Assembly: GCA_949373095.1 (NCBI GenBank)
Contig: CASIBY010000001.1
Location: 68,882 to 132,881, forward strand
Direction: 5' to 3'
Length of the DNA: 64,000 bases
Source: Candidatus Poseidoniaceae archaeon
Lineage (GTDB): Archaea; Thermoplasmatota; Poseidoniia; Poseidoniales; Poseidoniaceae
Shown piece after piece: positions 9,541 to 41,805 of this stretch (within the stretch, counting starts at the first letter, position 1; each line of letters starts with the position of its first letter). Under the pieces are notes generated by a model. It made no database searches. It saw only the letters and a list, made by a program, of their open reading frames with translations, and was not told where the DNA came from. The position numbers were made by a program, and so were the translations under genes.

Positions 9541-11109
9541 ATGGCTGACGAGACAAGTTCTTCGAATCAACAAACCATTGAAGTTGATGATGCCGCCGCT
9601 TACTTTGGAGCCACGACATCTTCCGACATGCTTCATACTCTGATGTCAATGCCTCGTGAACAAGCAATGGTTCAATTTTTTGAGATTTTATCTGATATCG
9701 TTCTAAGCCCTGGTGACTTTGATTTTGAAGCAGCAAGTGAGCGTATGCAGTGCGAAGGTGGCGAAATCTACTACCTTGTTGCAGGCCATCTTGCTCTAAT
9801 GAGCATGCCCGATCCATTACTGGAGGCATTAGGTCTTCCGAATTCATCAGGAGACATATTGGGTGCTCGTCTTGCATCCATTACACCAGAACAAGAAGGG
9901 CCCTTGACTCAATTAGCGGACCCAATGCGGATGATGAAAATTTTCGCTGTTGCTCACCAAACCGGCCAAGCCGATGAGATCATGAAGTACACGGTTACCC
10001 TTCAAGGCCACTTGAATTCTGTGGAACAATCGCTGGAAGTACTTGTTAGCATCAACAAAGAATTAGATGCAGCACTCGATGTTACTGGGCACATACTGCC
10101 CCTGCCTTCTCTTGCAAGCGGTTCTGCCGCTCCGTCTGAACTTGCACTGCCTAAATCCGTACCTCCCGTTGCGTCAAGCCCAAAGACCGTTGTACCACTT
10201 CCAAGCACAAAGTCGCCATCAATCCCAATTCCAACGGCTACGCCGACCCCAGAACCCAGCCCTGCCCCTCTAGCAGTTCCACTTCCGAATGAATCGGTCC
10301 AACTGCCTGTCATAGAGGTGGAATCTGCCGTTGAAGAAACCGTGAATGTCGAAAGTGAAAAGCAAGTGGCTCGCGCTACTCAAAATGCGTTTGCAGGAGC
10401 CTTTGATATCGGAATCGGAAGCGAGGAAGCAGCTCCCTCTGTGGTTGAACCGCAGGCTGAAGAAACCATGCAAGTTACTGAGCCTGATATTCTGGAAGAA
10501 CCTGCTCAATATGAGCCGGAAGCAGAGGAAGAAGAATTCGTAAGTGCAGCAGAACATTTCATCGTAGCCGATGAAGATAGCAGCGGTGCGTTATCCATCG
10601 AAGAACTCGCTCAAGCAACCGGTGCAACCCTTGATGAAGCATCGGAATTGCATGCAGAAGCTGATACGGATGGAGACGGAGTTGTTACTCTATCAGAATT
10701 CATCTCATCTCCGGCTGGGGAACGCTCTGTATCTTTGCCTAAACCAGTCGCTCCAGTTCGTAAACCGCTTGGTGGCGGGCAACAATCTGCCCAAGTATCT
10801 CAGCCAGTAAAGCGTCCACAAGCTCTTCCACAGCAGCCCCAGCAACCTCAGCAACCTCAGCAACCTCAGCAACCTCAGCAGCCCCAGCAACCTCAGCAGC
10901 CCCAGCAACCTCAGCAAAACTGGCAGCAGCAACCTCAACAACCACAGCAAAACTGGCAACAGCAACCTCAACCAGGTTGGCCCCAACCCCAAGCTCCAGT
11001 GGTTCAACCCACCATCCGCTCTGGAGTCCATTGCAGAAATTGCGGCATTGGGCTAGATCCTTACTGGCGCTTTTGCCCGGTGTGTGGTCAGCAAAATATG
11101 GGCTACTGA
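9541..11109 (+). CDS. EF-hand pair / Q-P-rich / C-terminal zinc-ribbon protein (hypothetical)
   Basis: 522 aa, ATG preceded by GGGAGGGG. EF-hand loops DEDSSGALSIEE and DTDGDGVVTLSEF. QQP tandem repeats. C-terminal CxxC...CxxC motif (CRNCGIGLDPYWRFCPVCG). The N-terminal ~190 aa are not recognised. Confidence 0.8.
   Translation: MADETSSSNQQTIEVDDAAAYFGATTSSDMLHTLMSMPREQAMVQFFEILSDIVLSPGDFDFEAASERMQCEGGEIYYLVAGHLALMSMPDPLLEALGLPNSSGDILGARLASITPEQEGPLTQLADPMRMMKIFAVAHQTGQADEIMKYTVTLQGHLNSVEQSLEVLVSINKELDAALDVTGHILPLPSLASGSAAPSELALPKSVPPVASSPKTVVPLPSTKSPSIPIPTATPTPEPSPAPLAVPLPNESVQLPVIEVESAVEETVNVESEKQVARATQNAFAGAFDIGIGSEEAAPSVVEPQAEETMQVTEPDILEEPAQYEPEAEEEEFVSAAEHFIVADEDSSGALSIEELAQATGATLDEASELHAEADTDGDGVVTLSEFISSPAGERSVSLPKPVAPVRKPLGGGQQSAQVSQPVKRPQALPQQPQQPQQPQQPQQPQQPQQPQQPQQPQQNWQQQPQQPQQNWQQQPQPGWPQPQAPVVQPTIRSGVHCRNCGIGLDPYWRFCPVCGQQNMGY
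10831..10975 (+). repeat. in-frame 9-nt tandem repeat (CAGCAACCT/CAGCAGCCC) encoding (QQP)n
   Basis: cagcagccccagcaacctcagcaacctcagcaacctcagcaacctcagcagccccagcaacct... is read directly. It degenerates into QNWQQQPQQP units. Confidence 0.85.
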
Positions 11110-28294: not shown

Positions 28295-29800
28295 TTATTG
28301 TACGGTCCAAATACCGTTCTGCTGAGTGAGATTTCCTTCTTCTTGGTGAGCGAGAAGGTGAGATAATGTTTGGTCAATTGCAAGGCCTGGATGGGCGTCA
28401 GGTGTATCTTCATATGCAGTTTTTGCAATTTCGTTAACGGATGATTGGCCGGCAATTACGGCATCTAAAACGCGCTGATGCCGAGCGCTCCGGTGATCTA
28501 TGTACCGTTGAATGGTTTGTTCTGGTAGGGCAATCACTGGGCCGTGACTGGGGAATATCAGATGCGGCTTTGCTTCCTTGAGTCGCTTTAGTTGAGAGAT
28601 GTACTCATTCATATTACCTGTTTGAGGTGGGATGAGTATGGTTCCGATTCCGGCGACCATATCCCCTGCGATCAATCCTGCATCTCCGAGTAGACAAATA
28701 TGGCCGGGATGATGGCCTGGAGTTATGAGTACCTCCCAGCATTGTTCTCCGAGTTGAAGTTCATCTCCATCAGAGAGAATACGGTCGCATGGGACGCTTT
28801 GAGAAGTATATTCACTGCCCCAAATAGGAGCATCAATTGCTTCGCGAAGCAAACCTATGTCAGCAAGATGGTCGGCGTGGCTGTGTGTGAAAATGACAGC
28901 CACGAGGGTGCCCTTGTGTCGGTCGATGGCCGTTGCCAAAGATTCCATGTCCTCTCGCATGCGAACAGCAGGGTCTACCAGGACATAATCGCCTTCGGGG
29001 TCCCCTACCATGTAGGCGTTGGTATGGTCGGCTGGCGGTAACGTTGCAGTTTTGATCGGGATGACTTCGACACCGTGGGCAAATAGGATTGACCGGCGCC
29101 CTGGAAGTCTCAAAGCAATGTCATCTGCTGCCTTTTCCATGTCCCGGTCAAATCGGTCAAGTGTCCGTTCAATTTCCATCAGAAGCGTGACTACGGGTGG
29201 AGCCACTTTCATCTCGTAAGAACGCCATTTTGAAAGAATATCCAGAGGTCGTGCCCATTTGACTTCGGTAAATTCGGTTTGAGGTTCTAAATCAATTTCA
29301 GGCATCTGATTTGATGAACCAGCGTGGAAATGGAGGAATGCGTTGTCAAATTGGACAGGTCCAAAGGGAGGCGTAATCCGGTGGCTGAGTACCTTGATGT
29401 TCTCCCTTGACACAGGGAAGGCGGCGTTCATGGCCATTGGGAGCCAGTTCTTTTTGTCACTGACAATCTCTAGTCTTGCTTCTAAAGGAACTGCGATTAA
29501 TCCGTTTGTAGCAGGTACGAGGCCAAGTTCCTCACTCATCTCTCTCAAAATACAAGCGATTGTTGTTGCTTCTCTCCCTTCGAGTTGTGGAAATGACTCC
29601 ACTGCTTTAGTGTCTACAGACGATACGCCTCCACCTGGAAAAGCCCAGTAATTGGGAAAGGCTCTCATGGTTATGGAACGCTTACCCAGGAGTACTTCAA
29701 CGCCTTCGGGGCCATCTCGGGTGAGGGTCATTGTCGCCGTTGGACGCGCAGAGCGACGTGAAGCGGGAGCAAAGTTGACACCTTCAGGTACTTCACTCAT
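28295..29800 (-). CDS. Nudix hydrolase - metallo-beta-lactamase fold fusion protein
   Basis: The N-terminal part has a Nudix box (FPGGGVS...ILREMSEELGL). The C-terminal part has MBL motifs FTHSHADHL, TPGHHPGH and a conserved late His (FPSHGP). Confidence 0.8.
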   Translation of the reverse strand: MSEVPEGVNFAPASRRSARPTATMTLTRDGPEGVEVLLGKRSITMRAFPNYWAFPGGGVSSVDTKAVESFPQLEGREATTIACILREMSEELGLVPATNGLIAVPLEARLEIVSDKKNWLPMAMNAAFPVSRENIKVLSHRITPPFGPVQFDNAFLHFHAGSSNQMPEIDLEPQTEFTEVKWARPLDILSKWRSYEMKVAPPVVTLLMEIERTLDRFDRDMEKAADDIALRLPGRRSILFAHGVEVIPIKTATLPPADHTNAYMVGDPEGDYVLVDPAVRMREDMESLATAIDRHKGTLVAVIFTHSHADHLADIGLLREAIDAPIWGSEYTSQSVPCDRILSDGDELQLGEQCWEVLITPGHHPGHICLLGDAGLIAGDMVAGIGTILIPPQTGNMNEYISQLKRLKEAKPHLIFPSHGPVIALPEQTIQRYIDHRSARHQRVLDAVIAGQSSVNEIAKTAYEDTPDAHPGLAIDQTLSHLLAHQEEGNLTQQNGIWTVQ

Positions 29801-29842: not shown

Positions 29843-32569
29843 TCATGCTTCTTGGCGGCGAATGAAAGCTGCACCAAGCAGTGAAAGCGTGGCGAGCATA
29901 CCTGTGAATCCTGGCAGAGACGGATTTTCATCGCTGTAGGCGTCGGCTGAGGAAGAGTAGAGCCGAACGGTGTTCCATGATTCTTCAACTCCACCGTTAT
30001 TGGAAATGTAGATCATATCGCCGTCAGAGAGTGTTCCCGAATCATCAGCATCAACAAAGAAAATGTATTGGCCATCTTCAGCCATAGCATCCATGTAATC
30101 CTCATCACGCAAATCCGTTTCAGAGGTCATGGCATCTTTGATTCCATTTATCGCCCCACCATCAACCTCTTCACAGGTACGAACTTCAGTTCCATCGTCA
30201 TCATAGTCGCTATCACAGTATGAAAGAACGATTGAAAAGTCCTCAGCGGCTCCTTCAAACAAGAACGGAGCATCTCCTGCCATGATGGTATAAACTGACA
30301 TATCGCCATTGTTTCCATTTTCATCATAGAAGCAAACATGCTCGCTGTATCTTCCGGTCATGGTGTCGTTGGAATCATAGGCCATGGCGATAATAATGTG
30401 ACATTGGTCTTCATAGGAATAGCCTTCAAGATCAGCCTGTTCTTCAAGCATGGTAATGCCGTAAAATACACTAAATACACCATCCTCATCATATGAGAAG
30501 GTCTCTTCTCCCATTGAATGGAGAAACTTAACATTCGGGTTTTCGTTTGTGTAGTATTCCTCTTCTAAGACAATACCAAACTCAACTTTGTCGAATGATT
30601 CAATGTCCTCATAGACGGAGAACTTGAATCCTGTGGTTTCCCAAGTGATTTCGTCGTAAACAGAGGAGAAACTGTGATTTTGCATCATCGAATCAGATTC
30701 GTCACTTCCGTCAGAACAATCCAACATTCCATCGTTCCACTGGCTGCTGTTGATCAATTCCCCCGTGTCGCACTCAAACATGTCTTCGGCAGTGATGAGA
30801 AGTATTGAACCTGTAACGTTGTCATACTGATAGAGCACCCCTCCATAGCCGCTAAAACCGGGGTCGAGTTCGAACGCTTGAGAGTCAGATTGGGTGATTA
30901 CGATGGATTCCGTGCAAAGGGAGGTGTTCATGGTGCTGTCGTAGGTTCCACCGTTTTCGGTACAATCCTCCGCCGATTCTGAATCCAGGGCGTACGTTAC
31001 GGTCATGTTCATTCCGTCATGAGCCACCGATGAAGCAACACCATTGAAGATATCGTTAATGAAGAATTCTAGAGGTAGATTAAATGTCTCGTTCTCCGCG
31101 AAAATGTGTCCATCCATCACCTCTGTATCACACAGCGATGTGTCAAGAGATGTATCGTTCCAAACTTCCATCACGCTGCTGTTTCCAATCATTGTAGCGT
31201 CAACACCTTCCATGCAAACATAGAGGGTGAGGAATACTGGGCCGCCATCTTCGTCGTTTGTCATGGATTCAAAACTGTTTCTGGACCAATCCTGTTCAAC
31301 CGTGAATGGAAGTGCTTCAGTTGAAGCATAACTCGACATGTCGGCTTCAAGAATTGCAGTCATTTCCTCGAGTGTGTGGAGTGTGAATGTGCCGGATTCA
31401 TCGTTTGCATCAATATCAACTTGAATGCTTCTCATCTCGAAAAGGGCGTTGACGGTAATGGTCACTGTGTGGATTTCGCTATCAAACACCGTCATTTCAG
31501 CACTGAATGCGAACGTGGAAACAGCGTCCATGGGGTTCATGAGAAGAGAGAAGTTAGCCGACGAAAAGTCGTATGCGGACAGGTCAATACCTGTTTCAGC
31601 ATCCCCGTTTTCATCAGAACCATCCTCGTCCATTCCATTTTCATCAGACCCATCTGAACAATCCTGTTCGCCATCGTTGACCCAATCAAAGGGTATTTCA
31701 TCACCGTTGTCGCAAATGAACACTTCATCCTCGCCCGTGTCCTCATCCATTTCTTCAAAGATGAGGTCAACGGATAAAATAAACGAGTTCAATTCATCTA
31801 CAGTGAGTTCACCAGACTGGTCATCGTCTGCCTCCACGTAAGCTGATTTGAGTGCCTCATACATTTCCTCTGTACCCTCAGTACCAACTTCCTCAAGGTA
31901 TGCAAAGAATTCCTCAAGACTCATGGAATCGCTGTTGTCAGAATCTGCAACTTGGAGAAGTCCCTCCGGTTCAGTGCCCGGCTCAGCGTCCTCATTGCTG
32001 CTGTCTTCTCTACCCGAAGTTTCGTCATCCTGCATGTCATCATCGTCCATGATGCTAATCATCACATCTTCATAGGAAGTTGCGCTGGTCATGGAAAATT
32101 TCTCCCCGTTGTAATCAACGTAGATCATGGTGCCGTCCGTGGTGGGTTGCACCCACCACTTTTCTTCAAACGTCATCATTGCGCCGAGGTCAACAGATGA
32201 TTCGAAATAGACTCCTTCAGGACTAATGATGGCCGTTTCTAATACGTCTGCATCCATCATCTCACCTTCTACGTTCATTGGTCCGGACCATGTGTCGGTG
32301 TACCCTGCTGTTTCTCCCGCAGCGGGACCTTCATCCATGAGCTTGATGAAGTCGTTTACGGCCTGAATTAAAATTTCCTCAGATAAACAAGCGAGATCAT
32401 TTCCTGCACTTTCGTTGTAGTTGTATGCCGTTTCATCGTTACACCCAGGGATGATTTCTTCAATTACACCGGCCACTGAATCTTCGGTAGGTTCTGTGCA
32501 TCCTGCTAGGAGGAGTAGAGCGGTCATCAAGAAAGCAAGTGTTTTGTGCATAAACAATCCTACGACCAT
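29843..32569 (-). CDS. very acidic surface protein with N-terminal lipobox, EF-hand-like and LDL-receptor-class-A-like Ca motifs, and PGF-CTERM sorting signal
   Basis: 908 aa. N-terminus MHKTLAFLMTALLLLAGC. Two C-x-G-x-I-x4-W-x-DG-x2-DCSDGSDE modules (CDNGDEIPFDWVNDGEQDCSDGSDE, CDTGELINSSQWNDGMLDCSDGSDE). EF-hand-like loops DSDNSDSMSLEEF and DDDQSGELTVDEL. C-terminus PGFTGMLATLSLLGAAFIRRQEA. Confidence 0.85.
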   Translation of the reverse strand: MVVGLFMHKTLAFLMTALLLLAGCTEPTEDSVAGVIEEIIPGCNDETAYNYNESAGNDLACLSEEILIQAVNDFIKLMDEGPAAGETAGYTDTWSGPMNVEGEMMDADVLETAIISPEGVYFESSVDLGAMMTFEEKWWVQPTTDGTMIYVDYNGEKFSMTSATSYEDVMISIMDDDDMQDDETSGREDSSNEDAEPGTEPEGLLQVADSDNSDSMSLEEFFAYLEEVGTEGTEEMYEALKSAYVEADDDQSGELTVDELNSFILSVDLIFEEMDEDTGEDEVFICDNGDEIPFDWVNDGEQDCSDGSDENGMDEDGSDENGDAETGIDLSAYDFSSANFSLLMNPMDAVSTFAFSAEMTVFDSEIHTVTITVNALFEMRSIQVDIDANDESGTFTLHTLEEMTAILEADMSSYASTEALPFTVEQDWSRNSFESMTNDEDGGPVFLTLYVCMEGVDATMIGNSSVMEVWNDTSLDTSLCDTEVMDGHIFAENETFNLPLEFFINDIFNGVASSVAHDGMNMTVTYALDSESAEDCTENGGTYDSTMNTSLCTESIVITQSDSQAFELDPGFSGYGGVLYQYDNVTGSILLITAEDMFECDTGELINSSQWNDGMLDCSDGSDESDSMMQNHSFSSVYDEITWETTGFKFSVYEDIESFDKVEFGIVLEEEYYTNENPNVKFLHSMGEETFSYDEDGVFSVFYGITMLEEQADLEGYSYEDQCHIIIAMAYDSNDTMTGRYSEHVCFYDENGNNGDMSVYTIMAGDAPFLFEGAAEDFSIVLSYCDSDYDDDGTEVRTCEEVDGGAINGIKDAMTSETDLRDEDYMDAMAEDGQYIFFVDADDSGTLSDGDMIYISNNGGVEESWNTVRLYSSSADAYSDENPSLPGFTGMLATLSLLGAAFIRRQEA

Positions 32570-32651: not shown

Positions 32652-32840
32652 ATGAGTCATGAATCGGTAGAGGAGCATTTGGCTGAGATGGCTGACCTCA
32701 TCGAGCAAGCAGAAGCGATGGGAATTGACCTCTGGCCAGAAACTAAACCGGCTCGTCCTTGGGCAAAGTATGCGCTTGCTTCCTTCATGGCGGTCATGAT
32801 GCTCTCTTGGGTTTCAAAAGTTCTTTTCCGCTTCGTTTGA
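32652..32840 (+). CDS. small tail-anchored membrane protein (hypothetical)
   Basis: 62 aa, ATG preceded by GAGAGG. Acidic helix followed by one TM (YALASFMAVMMLSWVSKVLF). Confidence 0.4.
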   Translation: MSHESVEEHLAEMADLIEQAEAMGIDLWPETKPARPWAKYALASFMAVMMLSWVSKVLFRFV

Positions 32841-32896
32841 GCCAAGGACATCCTCACCGTTGATTTCAAGAAGGACTCGTTCTTGGCCAAGAATAC

Positions 32897-32969
32897 AGTC
32901 CCTTAGTGTAGCGGTCCATCATGGAGGATTCTGGTTCCTCCGACCTCGGTTCAAATCCGAGAGGGACTA
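32897..32969 (+). tRNA. tRNA-Gln (CTG), no encoded CCA
   Basis: AGTCCCT TA GTGT AGCGGTCCA TCAT G GAGGA TTCTGGT TCCTC CGAC CTCGG TTCAAAT CCGAG AGGGACT A. Cloverleaf with an A1:U72 pair, as in archaeal tRNA-Gln. Anticodon CUG. Confidence 0.9.
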
Positions 32970-33079
32970 TCCGCAAAAGTCGTTTTAAGGGCGTGAAGCG
33001 TACCTTTGCCCATTTTTAGGGCATACGAAAACCTATAAGGGGGGTGCTTTTAGGGTGGCCTAAACCGGTAGGTCATAAC

Positions 33080-35194
33080 ATGAAAACACGAACTTTGAAA
33101 TCAACGATACTTGTATTCTTAATCGCCACAGCATCCCTCGCGGGATGTCTTGGTTCAGAAGACGAAAATGAAAGCCCAAATTTAGAAGATTTTGTCATCG
33201 CATATAGCATCAAAGATGATTATACAAACGTTGATGAAAACCCTCAACGTCTTGCCGATTATATGAGTGAAGAACTCAACATGGATGTTTCTCTATATCC
33301 TATTGATTCTGAAGGAGCAGCGCTACAAGCACTCCGTTTTGGCAATGCTGACATTGCTTTCATGGATGGCGGTGCAGCCTGGGTTGGCTGGCAACAATAT
33401 GGATTGGATGCAATTGCAGCCGACCAAAAATCGGATGGACGCGCGTATTACAGTGCTCATGCAGTAGTTCTCAAGGACTCTGAAATTGCTGCCGCACACC
33501 TTGACGATGATCCTACAACCGACCCGTTTTCCCTCATGGCGGGTAAGACTTCCTGCCATACTGGGTGGCTCAAGTCAGCAGGGATGCTTCTTCCAATGGG
33601 CTTCCTTATTGGAAACGGCTACGCCAATGTAATTGGTGATGCAAATGATGTTGAATCTCTGCGTTCGACCATCACAAATTTCTTCAGTGAGGATTCAAGT
33701 ATTCCTGATTCAGGAACACCTTATTACTCCTACAACGGGGCCGTTAAGTGCCTTTCTGAAGGCGTAGGAGATGTAGCATTCGCTAAGGATTCAACTATCT
33801 CCTCCTATTGTGGAAACGACGATGCTAGCACTAACGAAGCATGGTGCCTTCCGGAATCCGATTACATCTTGTTGCCATCATACGGCAACGCTCCATCTCA
33901 TCCTGTGATGTACAACCCTGCAACTAGTGACGCTGCCACAATGACCCTTGTTCAAGAGGCACTTGTCGCCATGAAGGATACATCTGAAGGTCTCTCTATT
34001 CTCACAGATGTTCTCAATACTCCAGCTATATCCTCAACGAATGCTTCACAACATCTTGCTTCTTACGGTAATTTGATTGAAGATGTTCCAGGGATTTCGG
34101 CATACTACGATACCAAGTTCACCATCAACGACTCTGTCGAGCCTACAATTTCTAACATCCGCATCGCTTTTGAAATGAAGGACGATTACGAAAACCCTGC
34201 GGAGAATCCTCAAGTTTTGGCCGATTTCATTGCCGAACAAACAGGAGTCACTGTGACCCTTTACCCAGTCACTTCTGAAGGAGCGATTATCGAGGCATTA
34301 CGATTTGGTAACGCAGACATCGCCTTCATGGACGGTGGAGCAGCTTGGGTTGGATGGAAAGAATACGGGCTAGCAGCCATGGCTGCCGACTTGAAGTCTG
34401 ACGGCCGCACTCATTATGATGCACACGCCGTAGTTCTCAACGGCTCCGACATCGCCAATGCTTACCTGGATGATGATGCATCAACCGATCCTTTCGCTAT
34501 GATGGAAGGTAAGACTTCATGCCACACAGGTTGGCTCAAGTCGGCGGGTATGCTTCTGCCAATGGGTCATCTGATTTCACAAGGCTATGCACCAGTTGTC
34601 GGGCCACAAGAAGACATTGAATCTCTCCGCAACACCATCACTTCGTTCTTTAATGAGAATGCGAGCATCCCTGAATCAGGTACGCCCTACTATTCCTACT
34701 CCGGAGCAGTGAAGTGCTTGACAGAAGGTGTTGGCGATGTTGCATTTGCTAAGGATTCAACCGTTGCTTCATACTGTGGTAACCAAGAAGCTACCGATAA
34801 CGCAGATTGGTGCCTTCCTGAGTCGGAATACATCCTTCTGCCTTCCTATGGCTCTGCACCATCCCATCCGGTAATGTACAATCCAGCAACGCTTGACGTC
34901 CAAACACGGACGGCAATTCTCAATGCTATGTTGGCATTGAACACTGAGATGTATGTGGAAGATTACCCAATGCAAGGGCAAAACTTCACCGGTTGTTACT
35001 CGATGGTTTCTCACCAAGTGGATTCGACCTCACCTCAGGCGGCATGTGGCGATCAAATCTTGTCAAATGTGCTCAACACACCTGGCTTGGTTGAAGTGAA
35101 TTCCCAAGAGCATCTTGGTAGTTACAGCAGCCTCATCAGTGCAATCCCGGGAATCTCAACGTACTTTGACTCAAAGTACGACATTGCGGAGTGA
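33080..35194 (+). CDS. bilobal transferrin-family lipoprotein (ABC-transporter substrate-binding protein, putative Fe3+ binding)
   Basis: ATG at 33080, lipobox LIATASLAGC. Two homologous halves each contain FMDGGAAWVG, Y(Y/H)..HAVVL, GKTSCHTGWLKSAGMLLPMG, YYSYxGAVKCLxEGVGDVAFAKDST and APSHPVM. These match the hallmark blocks of transferrin lobes, including the Asp/Tyr/Tyr/His iron ligands. Confidence 0.85.
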   Translation: MKTRTLKSTILVFLIATASLAGCLGSEDENESPNLEDFVIAYSIKDDYTNVDENPQRLADYMSEELNMDVSLYPIDSEGAALQALRFGNADIAFMDGGAAWVGWQQYGLDAIAADQKSDGRAYYSAHAVVLKDSEIAAAHLDDDPTTDPFSLMAGKTSCHTGWLKSAGMLLPMGFLIGNGYANVIGDANDVESLRSTITNFFSEDSSIPDSGTPYYSYNGAVKCLSEGVGDVAFAKDSTISSYCGNDDASTNEAWCLPESDYILLPSYGNAPSHPVMYNPATSDAATMTLVQEALVAMKDTSEGLSILTDVLNTPAISSTNASQHLASYGNLIEDVPGISAYYDTKFTINDSVEPTISNIRIAFEMKDDYENPAENPQVLADFIAEQTGVTVTLYPVTSEGAIIEALRFGNADIAFMDGGAAWVGWKEYGLAAMAADLKSDGRTHYDAHAVVLNGSDIANAYLDDDASTDPFAMMEGKTSCHTGWLKSAGMLLPMGHLISQGYAPVVGPQEDIESLRNTITSFFNENASIPESGTPYYSYSGAVKCLTEGVGDVAFAKDSTVASYCGNQEATDNADWCLPESEYILLPSYGSAPSHPVMYNPATLDVQTRTAILNAMLALNTEMYVEDYPMQGQNFTGCYSMVSHQVDSTSPQAACGDQILSNVLNTPGLVEVNSQEHLGSYSSLISAIPGISTYFDSKYDIAE
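33184..35110 (+). repeat. intragenic tandem duplication (two ~320-codon lobes, roughly two-thirds identical at protein level)
   Basis: Lobe 1 starts at NLEDFVIAYSIKDDYTNVDENPQRLADYM (~33184). Lobe 2 starts at ISNIRIAFEMKDDYENPAENPQVLADFI (~34147). Long identical stretches are shared (ALRFGNADIAFMDGGAAWVGW, GKTSCHTGWLKSAGMLLPMG, GVGDVAFAKDST, ILLPSYG.APSHPVMYNPAT). Confidence 0.85.
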
Positions 35195-35387
35195 AATTCA
35201 CTTAGTCTTCCTGACTGAAACCGCTGGCGGAGTGATTCGTTCACCACACCCAATAGAAGGGGTCACTCCGTTAGCACCCAGGAGCTAACATGGCTGTTCG
35301 CAGTAGTTTCTAGACTTGGAGATGTCGTACATTGAATGTCCAACCGTTTGAAAAAGACCCGCTCGCAGGGGTGGTTGAGGGGATGCT

Positions 35388-36077
35388 ATGAGCGACACTG
35401 CCATCTTATCCCTGGAAGGGCTTGTCATCGGGTACGATGACCCGCTTGTAGAGCCAATTTCACTTGAAGTAAAACCAGGTGAAATCGTAGCTATTCTCGG
35501 CCCATCCGGTATTGGGAAAACCACATTGATTCGCACTATTGCCGGCCTTGTTCGACCTCTTGGGGGCTCATTTGAACTGAATGTTGAACGCCGAGGAGGT
35601 CTTGGGTATATCCCTCAGCGCCTCGGTCTCATTCGACATGCAACCGTTGCTCACAATGTTTCGCTGGGTGCCCGAATGCGGGTCAAATGGTCACTTGACA
35701 TGTTCAAAGAACGGAAGGAGCGAACATTCGAAGCAATTCGTACCCTCGGAATTGAAGACAAGGCCTCAGAACCTGTTCGGCGCCTCTCCGGAGGTCAACA
35801 ACGTAGAGTGGCTACAGCAAAAACGCTGGCCCAGCGTCCACAGTTAATGCTTGCAGATGAGTTTCTTGGAGAGTTAGACCAAACGAATGTTGACATTGTC
35901 CTTGGGGCAGTCCAAGATTTAGTCCAGAGTGGAACCGCCGTGATCATGGTAGAACACCACGAAGATAATGCCAAAAATTTCGCAACACGGATTTGGGAAA
36001 TCAAGGGTCAACGTTTCATTGATCTACCGATTGATGAGTGGGTCAAGTATCATTCTGAGAAGGAGGAAGAGGAATGA
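35388..36077 (+). CDS. ABC transporter ATP-binding protein (PhnC-like)
   Basis: Walker A GPSGIGKTT, Q-loop, signature LSGGQQRRV, Walker B LMLADEFLGELD, H-loop VEHH. Confidence 0.9.
   Translation: MSDTAILSLEGLVIGYDDPLVEPISLEVKPGEIVAILGPSGIGKTTLIRTIAGLVRPLGGSFELNVERRGGLGYIPQRLGLIRHATVAHNVSLGARMRVKWSLDMFKERKERTFEAIRTLGIEDKASEPVRRLSGGQQRRVATAKTLAQRPQLMLADEFLGELDQTNVDIVLGAVQDLVQSGTAVIMVEHHEDNAKNFATRIWEIKGQRFIDLPIDEWVKYHSEKEEEE
36060..36073 (+). promoter_or_regulatory. Shine-Dalgarno cassette AAGGAGGAAGAGGA at a coupled ATGA junction
   Basis: Encodes ..KEEEE* of the ATPase. GGAGG lies 7 nt before the permease ATG at 36074, and that ATG overlaps the TGA. Confidence 0.6.
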
Positions 36078-36961
36078 AATATCGTTTATTTGGTATTATT
36101 CTGTTTCTTCTCTTCTTCGCTTGGCGAACGCTTGATGGCCTTGTTGAGGGGGATTGGGGCAGGCTCGAAGGCGGTCTTTCGAACTTGGTGGTGTTTTTCG
36201 AAGAAAGCATGTGGCCTCCGAATTGGAGTGTCCTTGAGGCCAGGTCTTACCCAGTATGTGAGGAGGATATCGGATTCTTTTGCTCAGTGGGCTACCTTGG
36301 TATGATGGAGACACTGAAAATCGCCTTTGTGTCTACAGTTTTAGGATTCATCGGTGCCATCACTCTTTCCTCTTTAGCAGCAAGAAACCTGACGCCCCTC
36401 TTCGTCTCCATCCCTGTGCGCGTTTTTCTTTCGGCTGTTCGGAGCCTTCCCAGTTTAATATGGGCCATTTTATTTGTGATTGTGATTGGTTTTGGTCCCC
36501 TTTCAGGCGTATTAGCGATGACCTTCTACACCGTAGGATACCTCGGTAAATTGCAATATGAAGTGTTTGAGGGAATGGCAAACGACCCACTGGAAGCAGG
36601 ACGGGCTATGGGGCTCAGTCGGCCAAGTATTTTCTTTAACATCGTGATTCCAGAAAACGGGAATCACTTACTGAGTCAACTGATGTTTATGTTTGAGTAC
36701 AACGTTCGGCATGGAACTGTGATTGGAATTGTTGGTGCTGGGGGCATTGGATACTATATCAGCACTTATCTCAAATTTCTCCAGTACGACAAAGTCTTCG
36801 CTTTGCTGATTCTTATCTTCATCGTTGTGGTTTTGATCGACCTGCTTTCGCTGATGGTTCGTTCCTTTGTTAACGAAGAAGGAGACGTACGCAAACCAAC
36901 ATGGCTCACTCTTCTCATGAAGGCAAGAAAGCGGAAAGACACCGCTGTTGATGAGGCTTGA
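36074..36961 (+). CDS. ABC transporter permease (PhnE-like)
   Basis: 295 aa, ~6 TM. Contains an EAA-like loop (DPLEAGRAMGLSRPSIFFNIVIPE) typical of the BPD_transp_1 / PhnE family. Confidence 0.85.
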   Translation: MKYRLFGIILFLLFFAWRTLDGLVEGDWGRLEGGLSNLVVFFEESMWPPNWSVLEARSYPVCEEDIGFFCSVGYLGMMETLKIAFVSTVLGFIGAITLSSLAARNLTPLFVSIPVRVFLSAVRSLPSLIWAILFVIVIGFGPLSGVLAMTFYTVGYLGKLQYEVFEGMANDPLEAGRAMGLSRPSIFFNIVIPENGNHLLSQLMFMFEYNVRHGTVIGIVGAGGIGYYISTYLKFLQYDKVFALLILIFIVVVLIDLLSLMVRSFVNEEGDVRKPTWLTLLMKARKRKDTAVDEA

Positions 36962-37177
36962 TTAATCTGCAGCAATATGCAAGGAACCGTCCTTGTAAAA
37001 CACTTGAATACGGTCAGATGCCTTCTTGCTTAACGATGCAATCGCCTCGTAAATTTCGTCTTCAGAGACTTTGAATGTCTTTGCTGCGTCTTTGGTTGAC
37101 CACGGCACGATGTGGAATTCACTCTTAGCCAGCCATTTCAATAACTTGGCTTCAAACTCAGAGAGTTCATCGGACAT
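36962..37177 (-). CDS. small cytoplasmic protein, possibly winged-helix (hypothetical)
   Basis: ATG at 37177 gives 71 aa (MSDELSEFEAKLLKWLAKSEF...). The longer ORF-track version overlaps gpsA. The stop abuts the permease stop. Confidence 0.4.
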   Translation of the reverse strand: MSDELSEFEAKLLKWLAKSEFHIVPWSTKDAAKTFKVSEDEIYEAIASLSKKASDRIQVFYKDGSLHIAAD

Positions 37178-37223
37178 GATACGCTCATGAAGCCTTCCCT
37201 CAAAACAGCACCGATGACCCTTG

Positions 37224-38222
37224 TCAGCCAAGTGCGACCATGCGTCTGCAACATTCCTCGGCATCAATGTCTCCATCAAGGAGCGTATTGAGTGCCTTAG
37301 TGAAAGGGACCTTGAGCCCACTGTCCTCTGCTCGTTCTATGAACATACGAGTGGCTCGAACACCTTCTGCGACCATGTGCATCTCATCCAATGCCTGCTC
37401 AAGGGAGAGTCCCGTCCCGAGTTTCTCCCCCATGCTTCGGTTTCTTCCATGTGGTGAAGTAGCGGTCACATACATGTCTCCAAGACCCGCGGGTCCGAAA
37501 GCAACTTCTGCTCGTGCTCCAAGTTCCGCAAGAAGAAGGCAGCCTTCTTTGAACCCGGACATGAAGATCGCAGCTTTGAGATTGTCACCTCCGAGGTCAC
37601 CAACCTGTTTGAGGCCGTCAACCAAACCACAAGCAAGGGCTACTACATTCTTGTATGCACCCCACAGTTCTGCTCCGACAGGGTCGCTTGCTGGATGAAG
37701 GATGAAACTTGGCGTCCCAAGGGTGCTTGCCAGGCGATTTGCGACAGCATCATCTTCACTTGCAACTAAAGCGGTAGTCATGACTCCTCCTGCCGCTTCT
37801 GGAGCAATGGTCGGGCCAGTAAGGACCGCGAGAGGGTTTGTTTTCCCCGCCTCTTTGAGCATTCCATGGATGGCTTGAGATATGAGTCGCTTTCCAGGTG
37901 CCAGGCCTTTTGCTAAGTCGAGCAGAACGTGGCGCGGTTGAAGGTGAGGAATGATATCTTGGACGACATCAAGGATGACCGACGAGGGCACGGCAAGAAC
38001 AATGATCTCACTTCCTTCAAGAGCTTCTGAAAGGTGCATGGTTGCATCCAACCCTTTCACAGGATGGTCAGGGAGATATTTTGAATTGATTCCATGAAGG
38101 GTAATTGACTGGTATACCTCTTCTTCAATCGTCCAACCTTTCACCTTATGACCTTCTAAAAGCCAAAGTCGAGCGATAGCCGTTCCCCAGTTTCCGAGAC
38201 CTAGTACAGAGATGTGTGCCAT
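37224..38222 (-). CDS. gpsA: NAD(P)H-dependent glycerol-3-phosphate dehydrogenase (bacterial GpsA type)
   Basis: ATG at 38222 gives MAHISVLGLGNWGTAIA (GxGxWGTA dinucleotide fold). Also has LTGPTIAPEAA, KNVVALACG and VAEGVRAT blocks. Confidence 0.85.
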   Translation of the reverse strand: MAHISVLGLGNWGTAIARLWLLEGHKVKGWTIEEEVYQSITLHGINSKYLPDHPVKGLDATMHLSEALEGSEIIVLAVPSSVILDVVQDIIPHLQPRHVLLDLAKGLAPGKRLISQAIHGMLKEAGKTNPLAVLTGPTIAPEAAGGVMTTALVASEDDAVANRLASTLGTPSFILHPASDPVGAELWGAYKNVVALACGLVDGLKQVGDLGGDNLKAAIFMSGFKEGCLLLAELGARAEVAFGPAGLGDMYVTATSPHGRNRSMGEKLGTGLSLEQALDEMHMVAEGVRATRMFIERAEDSGLKVPFTKALNTLLDGDIDAEECCRRMVALG

Positions 38223-38316
38223 AGCAATCGTCTGCTTCGCCACTTCTTTGGTTTATACCATTTCCCGATGAAAACACCGGCTTGGTGCGGTTTTCAACAG
38301 CCTGAGTACGACGCCA

Positions 38317-39607: not shown

Positions 39608-40333
39608 ATGGACGCTCGAATAGAAAAGGCCGTTAACGCCTTCAAAAACGGAGACCCAGTCTGTCTTTTTGACTCTGAAAAACGAGAAGGTGAAACTGAC
39701 CTTTTGTTCCCTGCTGAGCACGCTAAGCCAGAAACCATGCGCCAACTCCGTCAAGATTGTGGAGGATTGCTTTTTCTTGCCATCGGCGATGATGTAGGGG
39801 CATGTTTTGGACTCCCGTTCCTGCAGGATCTTCACACTGATGCTGCTGCTGTAGCTAACTTCCCTGTTCTCGGTCATCTGGTCACCAACGACCTCCGTTA
39901 TGATGCACGTTCGGCCTTCACGCTCTCCATCAACCATCGTGATACCTACACCGGAATCACCGACCATGACCGCTCGTTAACGACCCGTCGTTTTGCAGAG
40001 TTGGCGAAATCATCCATGGATTCAGGAGATTCGGTGGAGGTTGCTATTGAAAAATTAGGAACTGAGTTTAGAACGCCGGGCCATATCCCGGTCTGTCGTG
40101 AAGCAGAGGGCGGGTTGGCGCGACGCCAAGGTCACACGGAACTGGCTGTTGGACTTGCACGTCTCGCTGGAATGACGCCCGTAGTGATCGGCGCGGAAAT
40201 GCTTCAACCCAACGGCGATTTTGCTTTGTCAGTTGATGACGCAAGAGAATGGGCGTCGGAACGAGAAATTCCTTTCCTCGAAGGAGCAGATTTGCTCCGA
40301 GCCTTTGGCGAGATGACACCGTCATCCTCTTGA
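39608..40333 (+). CDS. ribB: 3,4-dihydroxy-2-butanone 4-phosphate synthase (archaeal type)
   Basis: DSEKREGETDLLFPAEHAKPETMRQLRQDCGGLLFLAI closely parallels the archaeal DHBPS N-terminal block (DSDEREGETD...R.DAGGL). Confidence 0.85.
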   Translation: MDARIEKAVNAFKNGDPVCLFDSEKREGETDLLFPAEHAKPETMRQLRQDCGGLLFLAIGDDVGACFGLPFLQDLHTDAAAVANFPVLGHLVTNDLRYDARSAFTLSINHRDTYTGITDHDRSLTTRRFAELAKSSMDSGDSVEVAIEKLGTEFRTPGHIPVCREAEGGLARRQGHTELAVGLARLAGMTPVVIGAEMLQPNGDFALSVDDAREWASEREIPFLEGADLLRAFGEMTPSSS

Positions 40334-40364
40334 AGAACAAACCCTCCGTTACAAAGGTGATACC

Positions 40365-40805
40365 GTGAAGCGAATCATGGCAGTTGGAGTTTTTGACCTG
40401 CTTCATGCAGGACATCTCCACTATCTAGAGCAAGCCAAAGCCCTAGGTGGCCACCTCACCGTCGTGGTTGCCCATGACGACACGGTTCGCAAAAGAAAAC
40501 ACAATCCCATCACCAGTCATGACCTTCGCAAACGCATGGTTGAGGGTTTGAAGCCCGTGGACGATGTCTTGATTGGAAACCCTCCCCAAGTGCCGATATT
40601 CGATATTCTCCCAAGGGTTAAACCCGACATTATTGCTCTCGGCTACGACCAAGAACATGCCGAGGAGAACATCCGCTCTGCACTCACATCACGTGGATAC
40701 GGCGCTATTGAAGTCGTTCGTGTAGAAGGCTTAACCGACGATTTGGATGGCACAAGAAAAATCATCGCTCGGATACTTGAACGAGCAGCCAAGAAGGAGG
40801 AATGA
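40365..40805 (+). CDS. ribL: cytidylyltransferase-fold FAD synthetase (RibL-like)
   Basis: 146 aa. GVFDLLHAGHLHYL (HxGH nucleotidyltransferase motif). Size and riboflavin-operon context fit archaeal RibL. GTG start preceded by AAGGTGA. Confidence 0.7.
   Translation: MKRIMAVGVFDLLHAGHLHYLEQAKALGGHLTVVVAHDDTVRKRKHNPITSHDLRKRMVEGLKPVDDVLIGNPPQVPIFDILPRVKPDIIALGYDQEHAEENIRSALTSRGYGAIEVVRVEGLTDDLDGTRKIIARILERAAKKEE
40794..40800 (+). promoter_or_regulatory. Shine-Dalgarno AAGGAGG at the ribL/ribE ATGA junction
   Basis: gccaagaaggaggaATGAagATGttcact encodes ..AAKKEE*. GGAGG lies 2 nt before ATG 40802 and 8 nt before ATG 40808. Confidence 0.55.
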
Positions 40806-41410
40806 AGATGTTCACTGGAATCGTTCAAGGAAAAGGAAAACTGATTGGCCTTGAAAAAGGGCAAGAGGTGCAAACACTCACTGTCCAACTGCCCGACGCC
40901 ACTGGGCTAGAGCGTGGAGCAAGCGTTGCTCTCAACGGTGTTTGCCTGACGGCGACGGACATTGCCGGAAATCACGTTGCTTTTGATGTCATTCCCGAGA
41001 CACTTGAGCGAACTGTATTGGGGCACCTCAATGTTGGAGATGAGATGAACGTTGAACGGTCCCTGAAAATGGGAGATGAACTCGGTGGACACCTTCTCTC
41101 TGGTCATATCATGGACAAAGCTACTGTCGTTGAAGTGACAAAGAAAGGCGAAGGCATGGATTTCAAACTAAAAGCACCTTCATCGCTCATGAAGTACATT
41201 CACGAAAAGGGATACATCGGTCTTAACGGTGCATCCCTTACCATTGGCGAGGTCAAGGAGGACATTTTGTCCATCCATTTGATTCCTGAGACACTGAGAC
41301 TTACCACGTTTGGAGCACTTTCAATGGGAGATGAAATCAATGTTGAAATTGATTCTATGACGCAGACAATAGTCGCAACGGTAGAGCGAATGATGAAACA
41401 GGAGATGTGA
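40802..41410 (+). CDS. ribE: riboflavin synthase (bacterial/eukaryotic two-barrel type)
   Basis: MFTGIVQGKG..., a second barrel and GHLLSGHI. The canonical MFTGI start is the second ATG at 40808. Confidence 0.85.
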   Translation: MKMFTGIVQGKGKLIGLEKGQEVQTLTVQLPDATGLERGASVALNGVCLTATDIAGNHVAFDVIPETLERTVLGHLNVGDEMNVERSLKMGDELGGHLLSGHIMDKATVVEVTKKGEGMDFKLKAPSSLMKYIHEKGYIGLNGASLTIGEVKEDILSIHLIPETLRLTTFGALSMGDEINVEIDSMTQTIVATVERMMKQEM

Positions 41411-41421
41411 GGTGGCGTAAC

Positions 41422-41805
41422 ATGGTCAAGAATATCGGTATTGTTTGCGGTTCCTTTCACCGCGAAGAGGTTGAACGCATGCTCGCATGGGCAAGCGAGG
41501 AAGCCGAAAAGAACGATTTAGAAATCACTCATATCGTATGGGTCCCTGGCTCCATGGAAGTTCCTTTAGCCCTTGACAGAATGTTGAGCGTATGTGATGC
41601 AGCAGCATGCCTGGGAATCATCGAGAAAGGAGAAACTCAACACGGCCTTGCAATGGGCCAAGCCGTCATCAAAACGATTCTTGAACTACAGCTCAAGCAT
41701 AACAAGCCGATTGGACTTGGAATTATTGGCCCTGGTGCTGAACATCACCATATCGAACCCCGACTTGAGCCACATGCCCGTGCGGCAGTGTTGGCTCTTA
41801 TTTGA
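41422..41805 (+). CDS. ribH: 6,7-dimethyl-8-ribityllumazine synthase
   Basis: 127 aa from ATG 41422. VWVPGSMEVPLA and GETQHGLAMGQAV blocks (VPGAfEiP / G.T.Hf.yV pattern). Confidence 0.8.
   Translation: MVKNIGIVCGSFHREEVERMLAWASEEAEKNDLEITHIVWVPGSMEVPLALDRMLSVCDAAACLGIIEKGETQHGLAMGQAVIKTILELQLKHNKPIGLGIIGPGAEHHHIEPRLEPHARAAVLALI

Follow-up and report, generated by a model that had tools for sequence, protein, structure and literature searches.

The 64,000-nucleotide (nt) stretch analysed here (the window; contig CASIBY010000001.1 of a Candidatus Poseidoniaceae archaeon, assembly GCA_949373095.1) contains a three-gene operon that encodes a lipid-anchored, transferrin-like substrate-binding protein (SBP), followed by the ATPase and the permease of an ATP-binding cassette (ABC) transporter (Table 1). 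A preliminary description made from the DNA letters had read the SBP as a two-lobed transferrin homologue serving a PhnC/PhnE-type importer, and the locus as a candidate ferric-iron uptake system.

The open reading frame (ORF) of the SBP was counted from the ATG as 704 amino acids. An alternative in-frame GTG at 33044 would yield 716 amino acids; the ATG was preferred because homologues measure 702-704 amino acids and because the operator box at 33050-33063 would fall within the GTG extension. The lipobox LAGC noted in the preliminary description was confirmed as residues 20-23. Alignment of the two lobes gave 60% identity across 341 columns with E = 2e-155, which excludes chance and establishes that the tandem duplication is real. 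All motif blocks quoted at the outset were found twice and in the same order, namely FMDGGAAWVG (residues 94 and 416), AHAVVL (126 and 448), GKTSCHTGWLKSAGMLLPMG (155 and 477), GAVKCL (220 and 542), LLPSYG (264 and 586) and APSHPVM (271 and 593). Lobe 2 additionally contains an insert of 31 residues carrying two extra cysteines.

The identification of the downstream genes as a PhnC-like ATPase and a PhnE-like permease also held. PhnC was the best NCBIfam match of the ATPase, at 128.7 bits and below the cutoff of 266, and the permease passed the PhnE equivalog TIGR01097 (222.1 vs 216.7 bits); the permease start overlaps the ATPase stop (ATGA). Conservation of the gene order was surveyed by tblastn in 79 species-representative loci of Poseidoniales (Marine Group II/III; MGII, MGIII), the genome scan for homologues being based on a five-sequence alignment. 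Wherever the contig was long enough, the order SBP-ATPase-permease was kept in MGIIa, MGIIb and MGIII alike, and the survey turned up no second SBP gene next to the transporter, in support of the assignment of the SBP to this importer. The homologues belong to Poseidoniales and related Thermoplasmatota of these three groups. One locus (L059, contig CAXRJJ010000119.1) is labelled Yoonia sp. and shows the archaeal operon in typical Poseidoniales synteny. Its tblastn coordinates agree exactly with those of L064, which comes from a Poseidoniales metagenome-assembled genome (MAG). Mis-binning of an archaeal contig into a bacterial MAG is almost certainly the explanation.

In Pfam, the SBP matched Transferrin (PF00405) with 147.7 bits (cutoff 20.3, E = 6e-43) in four stretches spanning both lobes, and Phosphonate-bd (PF12974) with 144 bits (cutoff 27) over whole lobes. 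The Transferrin match was thus significant and slightly the higher of the two, but since the scores differ by less than 4 bits, Pfam taken alone is ambiguous. The SBP remained below both NCBIfam cutoffs for PhnD (TIGR03431, 68.2 vs 261.1 bits; TIGR01098, 97.3 vs 112.05 bits), and no Pfam or NCBIfam match to FbpA/FutA-type ferric SBP families was obtained at E up to 1. When the SBP was searched as a single sequence against the PDB, the top 60 matches were all lactoferrin, transferrin, ovotransferrin or melanotransferrin (best 8.5e-30), and a profile of 96 archaeal lobe sequences likewise returned transferrin-family chains at all of the top 60 positions (melanotransferrin 3.2e-58, ovotransferrin 2e-54). 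Under this profile, transferrins scored 99-200 bits, isolated N-lobes accounting for 99-117 bits, vs 29.8 bits for Escherichia coli PhnD. The PhnD query was about 99% identical to 3P7I; searched against the PDB, it retrieved PhnD, PtxB, HtxB and ArrX chains only, and no transferrins.

A single lobe was modelled with AlphaFold2 from 96 diverse sequences (predicted local distance difference test score 96, predicted template-modelling (TM) score 0.91). The model is an open, two-domain alpha/beta lobe with a hinge, which corresponds to the class II binding-protein fold. Foldseek against the PDB placed apo-PtxB at the top, with apo-PtxB and apo-transferrins both at about 1e-15 and a TM-score of about 0.65; query-normalised TM-scores to apo-transferrins and lactoferrins were 0.65-0.68. 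The transferrin fold was therefore matched, but PhnD-family folds were matched equally well. The fold is non-discriminating because it is shared with the PhnD family, whereas sequence identity does discriminate (20-22% to transferrins vs 14-16% to PtxB and AioX). In sequence, the lobes belong to the transferrin family and not to PhnD. The searchable literature, which omits most subscription journals, yielded no previous account of transferrin homologues in archaea. Homologues are named "PhnD/SsuA/transferrin family" by NCBI and phosphonate SBP by JGI, occasionally also "melanoma-associated antigen p97", another name for melanotransferrin.

In human transferrin numbering, the reference iron ligands are Asp63, Tyr95, Tyr188 and His249, and the synergistic anion is held by Thr120 and Arg124 at the N-terminus of helix 5. 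The putative counterparts are D96, Y124, Y218 and H274 with the anion site T161 and K165 in lobe 1, and D418, Y446, Y540 and H596 with T483 and K487 in lobe 2. Alignment to bovine lactoferrin (1blf) paired D418 with D60, Y446 with Y92, T483 with T117, K487 with R121 and Y540 with Y192, and alignment to duck ovotransferrin paired the invariant His of PSHPVM with H250, so that the transferrin alignment given in the preliminary description was reproduced by computation. All six columns (D, Y, T, K, Y, H) were invariant in the 96 archaeal homologues, at a mean column identity of 40%, and the claim that both lobes keep all four Fe3+ ligands is upheld. In the AlphaFold2 model, the six residues occupy the N-termini of helices and the two strands of the hinge, the same secondary-structure positions as in transferrin. 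Cys159, Cys224, Cys244 and Cys256 of lobe 1 match the positions of the human transferrin pairs C118-C194 and C227-C241; these four cysteines were invariant in the 96-sequence archaeal alignment and in ichthyosporean lobes. E. coli PhnD binds phosphonate through two Tyr, a Ser-Thr-Ser helix cap and a His. In the low-scoring alignment of PhnD to the archaeal profile (29.8 bits overall), the PhnD Tyr93 column coincides with the transferrin Tyr95 column, and the Ser-Thr-Ser region falls, with gaps, on ...KSAG....

Across the family, the pattern D-Y-T-K-Y-H was read in 168 of 241 sampled lobes, eukaryotic lobes among them, and Lys was the commonest residue at the anion-Arg position of the sampled eukaryotic lobes. 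The preliminary description was thus right that the anion Thr is kept and Arg replaced by Lys, both being invariant in the archaeal alignment; Lys is no archaeal peculiarity, however, and is normal for the family because it is common throughout. Each lobe is predicted from these residues to bind Fe3+ together with a synergistic anion. Several ligand positions are lost in the divergent archaeal paralogues P0122, P0123, P0127, P0130 and P0131, and the outliers P0187 and P0188 lack all four ligands; such degeneration fits the ligand residues being one functional unit under joint selection. The five paralogues are two-lobe lipoproteins 33-48% identical to lobe 1 of the window protein (P0122 is from an MGII archaeon), with degenerate sets in one or both lobes, e.g. 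DYTKFD / AHTDPE, and probably bind something other than iron.

The operator box 30 nt upstream of the SBP start codon matches the 14-bp IdeR/DtxR consensus TTAGGNNNNCCTAA (PMC8464063) exactly and is the sole exact copy in the window. A one-mismatch box at 9829 was dismissed as within chance expectation. The distal box in the window is degenerate, with two mismatches to the consensus; orthologous loci mostly have a perfect box at that position, directly 5' of the TATA-like element, and carry A/T-rich counterparts of this element (CTATATGTA, TTATATA) between the two boxes. In most of 74 orthologous promoters, the palindrome TTAGG-N4-CCTAA was present in 2-3 copies bracketing the TATA-like element.

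Scanning of 1.0 Mb comprising 79 SBP loci revealed 134 boxes, 127 of them in the 400 nt that precede the SBP start codon and 7 between the SBP and ATPase genes; such an extra box takes the place of the spacer hairpin in 7 orthologous loci. In 560 kb from 80 metagenome loci centred on a DtxR-family regulator gene, 213 boxes were found, all in promoters: 87 were shared by the regulator and the SBP gene, 81 by the regulator and a gene for the iron permease FTR1, and 10 by the regulator and a 783-amino-acid secreted protein, while 25 belonged to the regulator alone, 8 preceded the SBP gene and 2 the ATPase gene. Every one of the total of 347 boxes in 1.57 Mb of related loci was promoter-located. 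The FTR1 gene (PF03239, 115 bits) is divergent from the regulator in 27 metagenome loci, with three boxes between them, and from the shared boxes and regulator it follows that one regulator/operator pair probably controls either the SBP operon or a bona fide iron permease. The FTR1 loci lie among L082-L143 (e.g. L085, 5122-5886, minus strand) and have DsrE-like and thioredoxin genes 3' of the regulator; no EfeO- or Fet3-type partner directly follows FTR1, the next gene being mutL. The secreted protein of about 783 amino acids, with carboxypeptidase-regulatory-like and Y_Y_Y domains, is divergent from the regulator with a single box in loci L125 (3545-5890, minus strand), L136, L140, L148, L150 and L152, and may be a further member of the iron regulon. 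Phosphate-starvation control found no support at the SBP locus, where no operator other than one of iron-sensor type is conserved.

The DtxR-family gene adjoins the SBP gene divergently in 9 genome loci, mostly of MGIII type, and in 29 metagenome loci. The regulator has three domains (DNA-binding, metal-binding and FeoA/SH3-like), and its primary metal site, Met10, Cys102, Glu105 and His106, is of the Fe type in 9 of 9 adjacent copies. The Met and the Cys were kept in 119 of 120 Poseidoniales orthologues. In the manganese sensors that this search also aligned, the first two metal-site positions are Asp and Glu. No NCBIfam regulator model passed its cutoff for this protein. Orthologues are widespread in Poseidoniales, and a regulator of this kind is the presumed repressor in the window's own genome.

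The remaining features of the region are included in Table 1. Most MGII loci have a small ORF and a gpsA-like gene 3' of the operon in convergent orientation. The small ORF was considered as a regulator of the operon and rejected, there being no Pfam or NCBIfam match. None of the identified conserved neighbours at the locus (small ORF, gpsA, DtxR-family gene) gave a link to phosphonate catabolism. Rinke 2019 discusses glycerol-3-phosphate dehydrogenase in relation to the mixed membrane lipids of MGII. The SBP and ATPase genes are separated by a spacer of 193 nt, which, folded as a whole, is modestly more stable than shuffled sequence (z = -2.05); speculatively, its hairpin could be an intercistronic stabiliser or an attenuator setting the ratio of SBP to transporter. 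Upstream, the C-terminal tail of the acidic 908-amino-acid protein (PGF...hydrophobic...RRQEA) resembles an archaeosortase (PGF-CTERM) sorting signal, and this protein is kept in the closest relatives only.

Table 1. Features of the operon and its surroundings (positions within the window)
Feature	Position	Strand	Remarks
NUDIX + metallo-beta-lactamase fusion	28295-29800	-	501 amino acids
Very acidic secreted protein	29843-32569	-	908 amino acids; lipobox-like N-terminus; LDL-receptor class A and EF-hand-like matches
Short ORF	about 32653-32850		about 66 amino acids, hydrophobic stretch; just 5' of tRNA-Gln
tRNA-Gln (anticodon CTG)	32897-32969	+	between upstream gene and operon promoter
Distal operator box, degenerate	33016-33029	+	TTAGGGCATACGAA; two mismatches to TTAGGNNNNCCTAA; adjoins TATA-like element
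TATA-like element, putative archaeal promoter	33032-33039	+	CCTATAAG; about 45 nt 5' of start codon; predicted from sequence
Operator box	33050-33063	+	TTAGGGTGGCCTAA; exact match to TTAGGNNNNCCTAA; 30 nt 5' of ATG
SBP gene	33080-35194	+	704 amino acids
Signal peptide and lipobox LAGC	33080-33148	+	Cys23 as lipid attachment site; A21, G22 and C23 invariant in homologues
Transferrin-like lobe 1	33185-34141	+	residues 36-354; AlphaFold2 model, Foldseek, ligand columns invariant in 96 sequences
Transferrin-like lobe 2	34142-35194	+	residues 355-704, stop codon included; 60% identity to lobe 1; ligand alignments
Long hairpin in SBP-ATPase spacer	35223-35275	+	stem 16 + 3 bp
ABC ATPase subunit, PhnC-like	35388-36077	+	229 amino acids; Pfam ABC_tran, E = 5e-28
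ABC permease subunit, PhnE family	36074-36961	+	295 amino acids; TIGR01097; Pfam BPD_transp_1; synteny
Small conserved ORF	36962-37321	-	core about 71 amino acids; no Pfam or NCBIfam match
Bacterial-type NAD-dependent glycerol-3-phosphate dehydrogenase (gpsA)	37224-38243	-	convergent to operon in most MGII loci
Riboflavin/FAD-like gene run	39608-41805	+	by-eye reading; DHBP-synthase-, small cytidylyltransferase-, riboflavin-synthase- and lumazine-synthase-like genes

We consider it likely that the operon is an iron-repressed ABC importer of inorganic Fe3+, with a lipid-anchored transferrin-family member as its SBP. The proposal of ferric-iron uptake gains support from the IdeR/DtxR-type operator, from the Fe-type DtxR regulator adjacent in some lineages and from the co-regulation of FTR1. 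In the mechanism envisaged, each lobe would close on one Fe3+ and bind it by Asp, two Tyr and His. A synergistic anion, likely carbonate, would take part in the binding, held as in transferrin by Thr, Lys and the N-terminus of a helix. The loaded lobe would then dock onto the PhnE-type permease dimer, and ATP hydrolysis by the PhnC-like subunit would open the lobe so that iron moves into the cell. At plentiful iron, a DtxR/IdeR-family repressor would occupy the TTAGG-N4-CCTAA boxes on either side of the TATA element and transcription start and silence the operon. The lobe number is one, two or three according to species, and additional lobes may provide more capture sites per transporter in iron-poor seawater.

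Several observations weigh against iron import. Phosphonate-bd nearly equals Transferrin in Pfam, Foldseek does not separate apo-PtxB from apo-transferrins, and the permease scores above the cutoff of the PhnE equivalog. The 64-kb window itself encodes no DtxR homologue; the recognition helix of the regulator found elsewhere is MntR-like, the IdeR DNA contacts S37, P39, T40 and Q43 being replaced, and the top NCBIfam model of this regulator is Thermus-type MntR, below cutoff (100 vs 350 bits). To our knowledge, all characterised members of the transporter family carry anions, and the passage of Fe3+ through a PhnE-type permease is without precedent.

Some of these points would suit an ABC importer of phosphonate, phosphite or another phosphorus oxyanion, in which Tyr, His, Thr and Lys would hydrogen-bond the anion and Asp would bind an amine, as in the recognition of 2-aminoethylphosphonate by PhnD. 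Such an importer would be in keeping with the whole-lobe Phosphonate-bd match, the PhnE and PhnC matches of the transporter subunits, the top rank of apo-PtxB in Foldseek and the alignment of the Tyr95 column with the phosphonate-binding Tyr93 of PhnD. The operon is also treated as phosphonate transport by the JGI and NCBI names and by Tully 2019 (PMC6336850), where phosphonate transport is reported as a core MGII trait. We nevertheless regard oxyanion import as unlikely: both PhnD models of NCBIfam failed (68 vs 261 and 97 vs 112 bits), the archaeal profile gives PhnD 30 bits vs 99-200 for transferrins, the full Fe3+ ligand set is invariant, the IdeR/DtxR operator is common to the FTR1 iron permease and the Fe-type regulator, and the identified conserved neighbours are unrelated to phosphonate catabolism.

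Import of some other hard metal ion, with manganese as the most plausible candidate and a Mn-sensing DtxR/MntR-family protein in control, appears slightly less probable still. The MntR-like recognition helix, the Thermus-type MntR model as best NCBIfam match and the JGI name of the regulator, which calls it Mn-dependent, speak for it, and transferrin sites are able to accommodate Mn3+ as well as further tri- or tetravalent ions. Against this, the NCBIfam matches of the regulator are all far below cutoff, and the JGI name is assumed to be no more than a general tag of the orthologous group. At the positions that determine selectivity, the regulator has the Met and Cys of DtxR/IdeR and not the Asp and Glu of manganese sensors. 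The operator matches the consensus of iron sensors, FTR1 as the co-regulated partner is an iron permease, and a site of two tyrosinates plus carbonate favours Fe3+.

That the surface lipoprotein mainly sequesters, buffers or senses iron while the adjacent transporter carries another substrate is the least probable of these alternatives and very unlikely, for although many eukaryotic transferrin-family proteins sequester rather than import iron, and the 193-nt gap with its hairpin and occasional boxes before the ATPase gene suggests partly separate expression, the SBP-ATPase-permease order was found in every informative locus of the tblastn survey, which detected no other SBP gene there, and one-, two- and three-lobe forms all occupy the same operon position.

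The number of lobes at this position varies. Among complete genes, 44 encode two lobes and 29 encode one, and a three-lobe form (P0035, 1156 amino acids), in which lobe 1 is duplicated again, was observed with the full ligand set in all three lobes. A search of 1.84 billion representative proteins yielded 371 relatives, the non-archaeal ones being from Ichthyosporea, Corallochytrium, a green alga and amphioxus, together with other eukaryote-type sequences. Ichthyosporea and Corallochytrium are unicellular relatives of animals. A cysteine-free group with the pattern D-Y-T-G-Y-H includes Nitrosopumilus; the one-lobe proteins P0251, P0259 and P0261 show this pattern without the four conserved cysteines, and one of them, from Nitrosopumilus, is annotated as phosphonate SBP. 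Among the multi-lobe eukaryotic proteins (P0126, P0138, P0142, P0134 and P0144), most tallied lobes keep the full ligand set, and near-complete lobes number 5 in Chromosphaera, 4 in Corallochytrium and 3 in Creolimax; profile matches point to about 7 lobes in Bryopsis, and Branchiostoma has at least 4. These many-lobed proteins imply that lobe multiplication has been recurrent across the family.

A neighbour-joining tree of 87 lobes, calculated with a simple distance and rooted on E. coli PhnD, has the Nitrosopumilus-like group branching first. All eukaryotic lobes form one clade (72% bootstrap), and the Thermoplasmatota lobes are its sister. In the eukaryotic clade, Ichthyosporea are basal and an animal and algal crown receives 92%; deep nodes of the tree have 31-72% bootstrap. 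Both lobes of the window protein group among archaeal lobes, and the archaeal duplication is therefore independent of that in animals. The earlier suggestion that the protein is already duplicated into the bilobal architecture typical of animal transferrins needs correction: the two-lobe form is not shared with animals, since the archaeal duplication arose separately and varies by species. In the degenerate paralogues, lobe 1s and lobe 2s cluster separately, which hints at an old archaeal duplication.

The presumed ancestral role as a binding protein fared better. Archaeal lobes are still paired with a PhnCE-type transporter, as PhnD is, which is the expected ancestral state, and an origin of transferrins from periplasmic proteins that bind phosphonate, as proposed in the literature, is consistent with it. 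The topology of the tree suggests a direction of transferrin transfer between archaea and eukaryotes. We tentatively propose, as a scenario with somewhat less than an even chance of being correct, that the Thermoplasmatota lipoproteins and the cysteine-free Nitrosopumilus-like group are what survives of the prokaryotic stem of the transferrins. An iron-binding SBP would have evolved from a PhnD-like ancestor during its service to a PhnCE-type importer, and an early eukaryote, perhaps one on the line to animals and their unicellular relatives, would have acquired it later; every eukaryotic transferrin would go back to this transfer.

Marine Group II/III archaea are among the most abundant microbes of surface waters, and the genomic surveys checked say nothing of their iron acquisition or uptake (Tully 2019, PMC6336850; Rinke 2019). 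If iron import is correct, the "core" phosphonate-transport trait needs re-annotation and meta-omic counts of iron and phosphorus acquisition genes would change; the operon, with its operator and repressor, would provide an abundant archaeal iron-stress marker. It would also supply a missing prokaryotic intermediate between PhnD-type proteins and eukaryotic transferrins, still working on an ABC transporter, and make the origin of transferrins experimentally approachable. Should the stem scenario be true, an annotated "phosphonate transporter" would be the main high-affinity iron route of abundant ocean archaea. The cysteine-free Nitrosopumilus-like homologues may bear on the reported lack of Fe-specific uptake genes in N. 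maritimus (PMC6776035); marine ammonia-oxidising archaea are reported to be without Fe-specific transporters. Finally, tandem multiplication of capture domains, to one, two or three lobes, arose here independently of the animal duplication.

Compared with known systems, the SBP is closest to the eukaryotic transferrins (PF00405), with which it shares sequence homology, the best PDB match, the two-domain lobe fold, tandem lobes, Asp/Tyr/Tyr/His, the anion-binding Thr and basic residue, and the four cysteines of C118-C194/C227-C241. Unlike these, the archaeal protein has a lipid anchor and shares its operon with the ATPase and permease of an ABC transporter; eukaryotic transferrins take iron by receptor-mediated endocytosis, whereas archaeal iron would enter through the transporter. 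The archaeal lobes lack the large insertions and most disulfides of animal lobes, their duplication is independent and species-variable, and the archaeal operon is putatively controlled by a DtxR-type repressor.

The archaeal SBP belongs to the same superfamily, and has the same fold, as those of the phosphonate, phosphite and hypophosphite importers PhnCDE, PtxABC and HtxBCDE; permease and ATPase also come from the families found there, the operons are laid out alike, and PhnD-family importers are the likely evolutionary source of the whole archaeal system. This system differs from them in that the archaeal SBP is below the PhnD cutoffs and much nearer to transferrins, that a metal-ligand set is present in contrast to the Ser-Thr-Ser anion motif of PhnD, that the operator is of iron type and that the conserved neighbours are not phosphonate-catabolism genes. 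The proposed principle is that of FbpABC, FutABC and AfuABC, ferric-ion ABC importers also called bacterial transferrins: a two-domain SBP that would bind free Fe3+ by two Tyr, His and a carboxylate plus a synergistic anion, hand-over to an ABC permease and repression at plentiful iron. SBP and permease families are both distinct, however, and the likeness is a system-level analogy.

The algal ISIP2a and the triplicated transferrin of Dunaliella would follow the same ecological logic, i.e. surface capture of inorganic Fe' from seawater with carbonate as the synergistic anion, and some algal phytotransferrin-type proteins have multiplied domains, like the archaeal lobes. They differ in being eukaryotic and endocytosed, and ISIP2a is described as belonging to another sequence family. 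With actinobacterial IdeR/DtxR regulons, the archaeal regulon shares the redefined 14-bp consensus TTAGGNNNNCCTAA, a three-domain regulator with the Met/Cys/Glu/His primary site, boxes that overlap core promoter elements and a regulator that appears to be self-regulating. It differs in its archaeal host, in recognition-helix residues, in an ancillary metal site that is not conserved and in having separate single-dimer boxes instead of a 19-bp double site.

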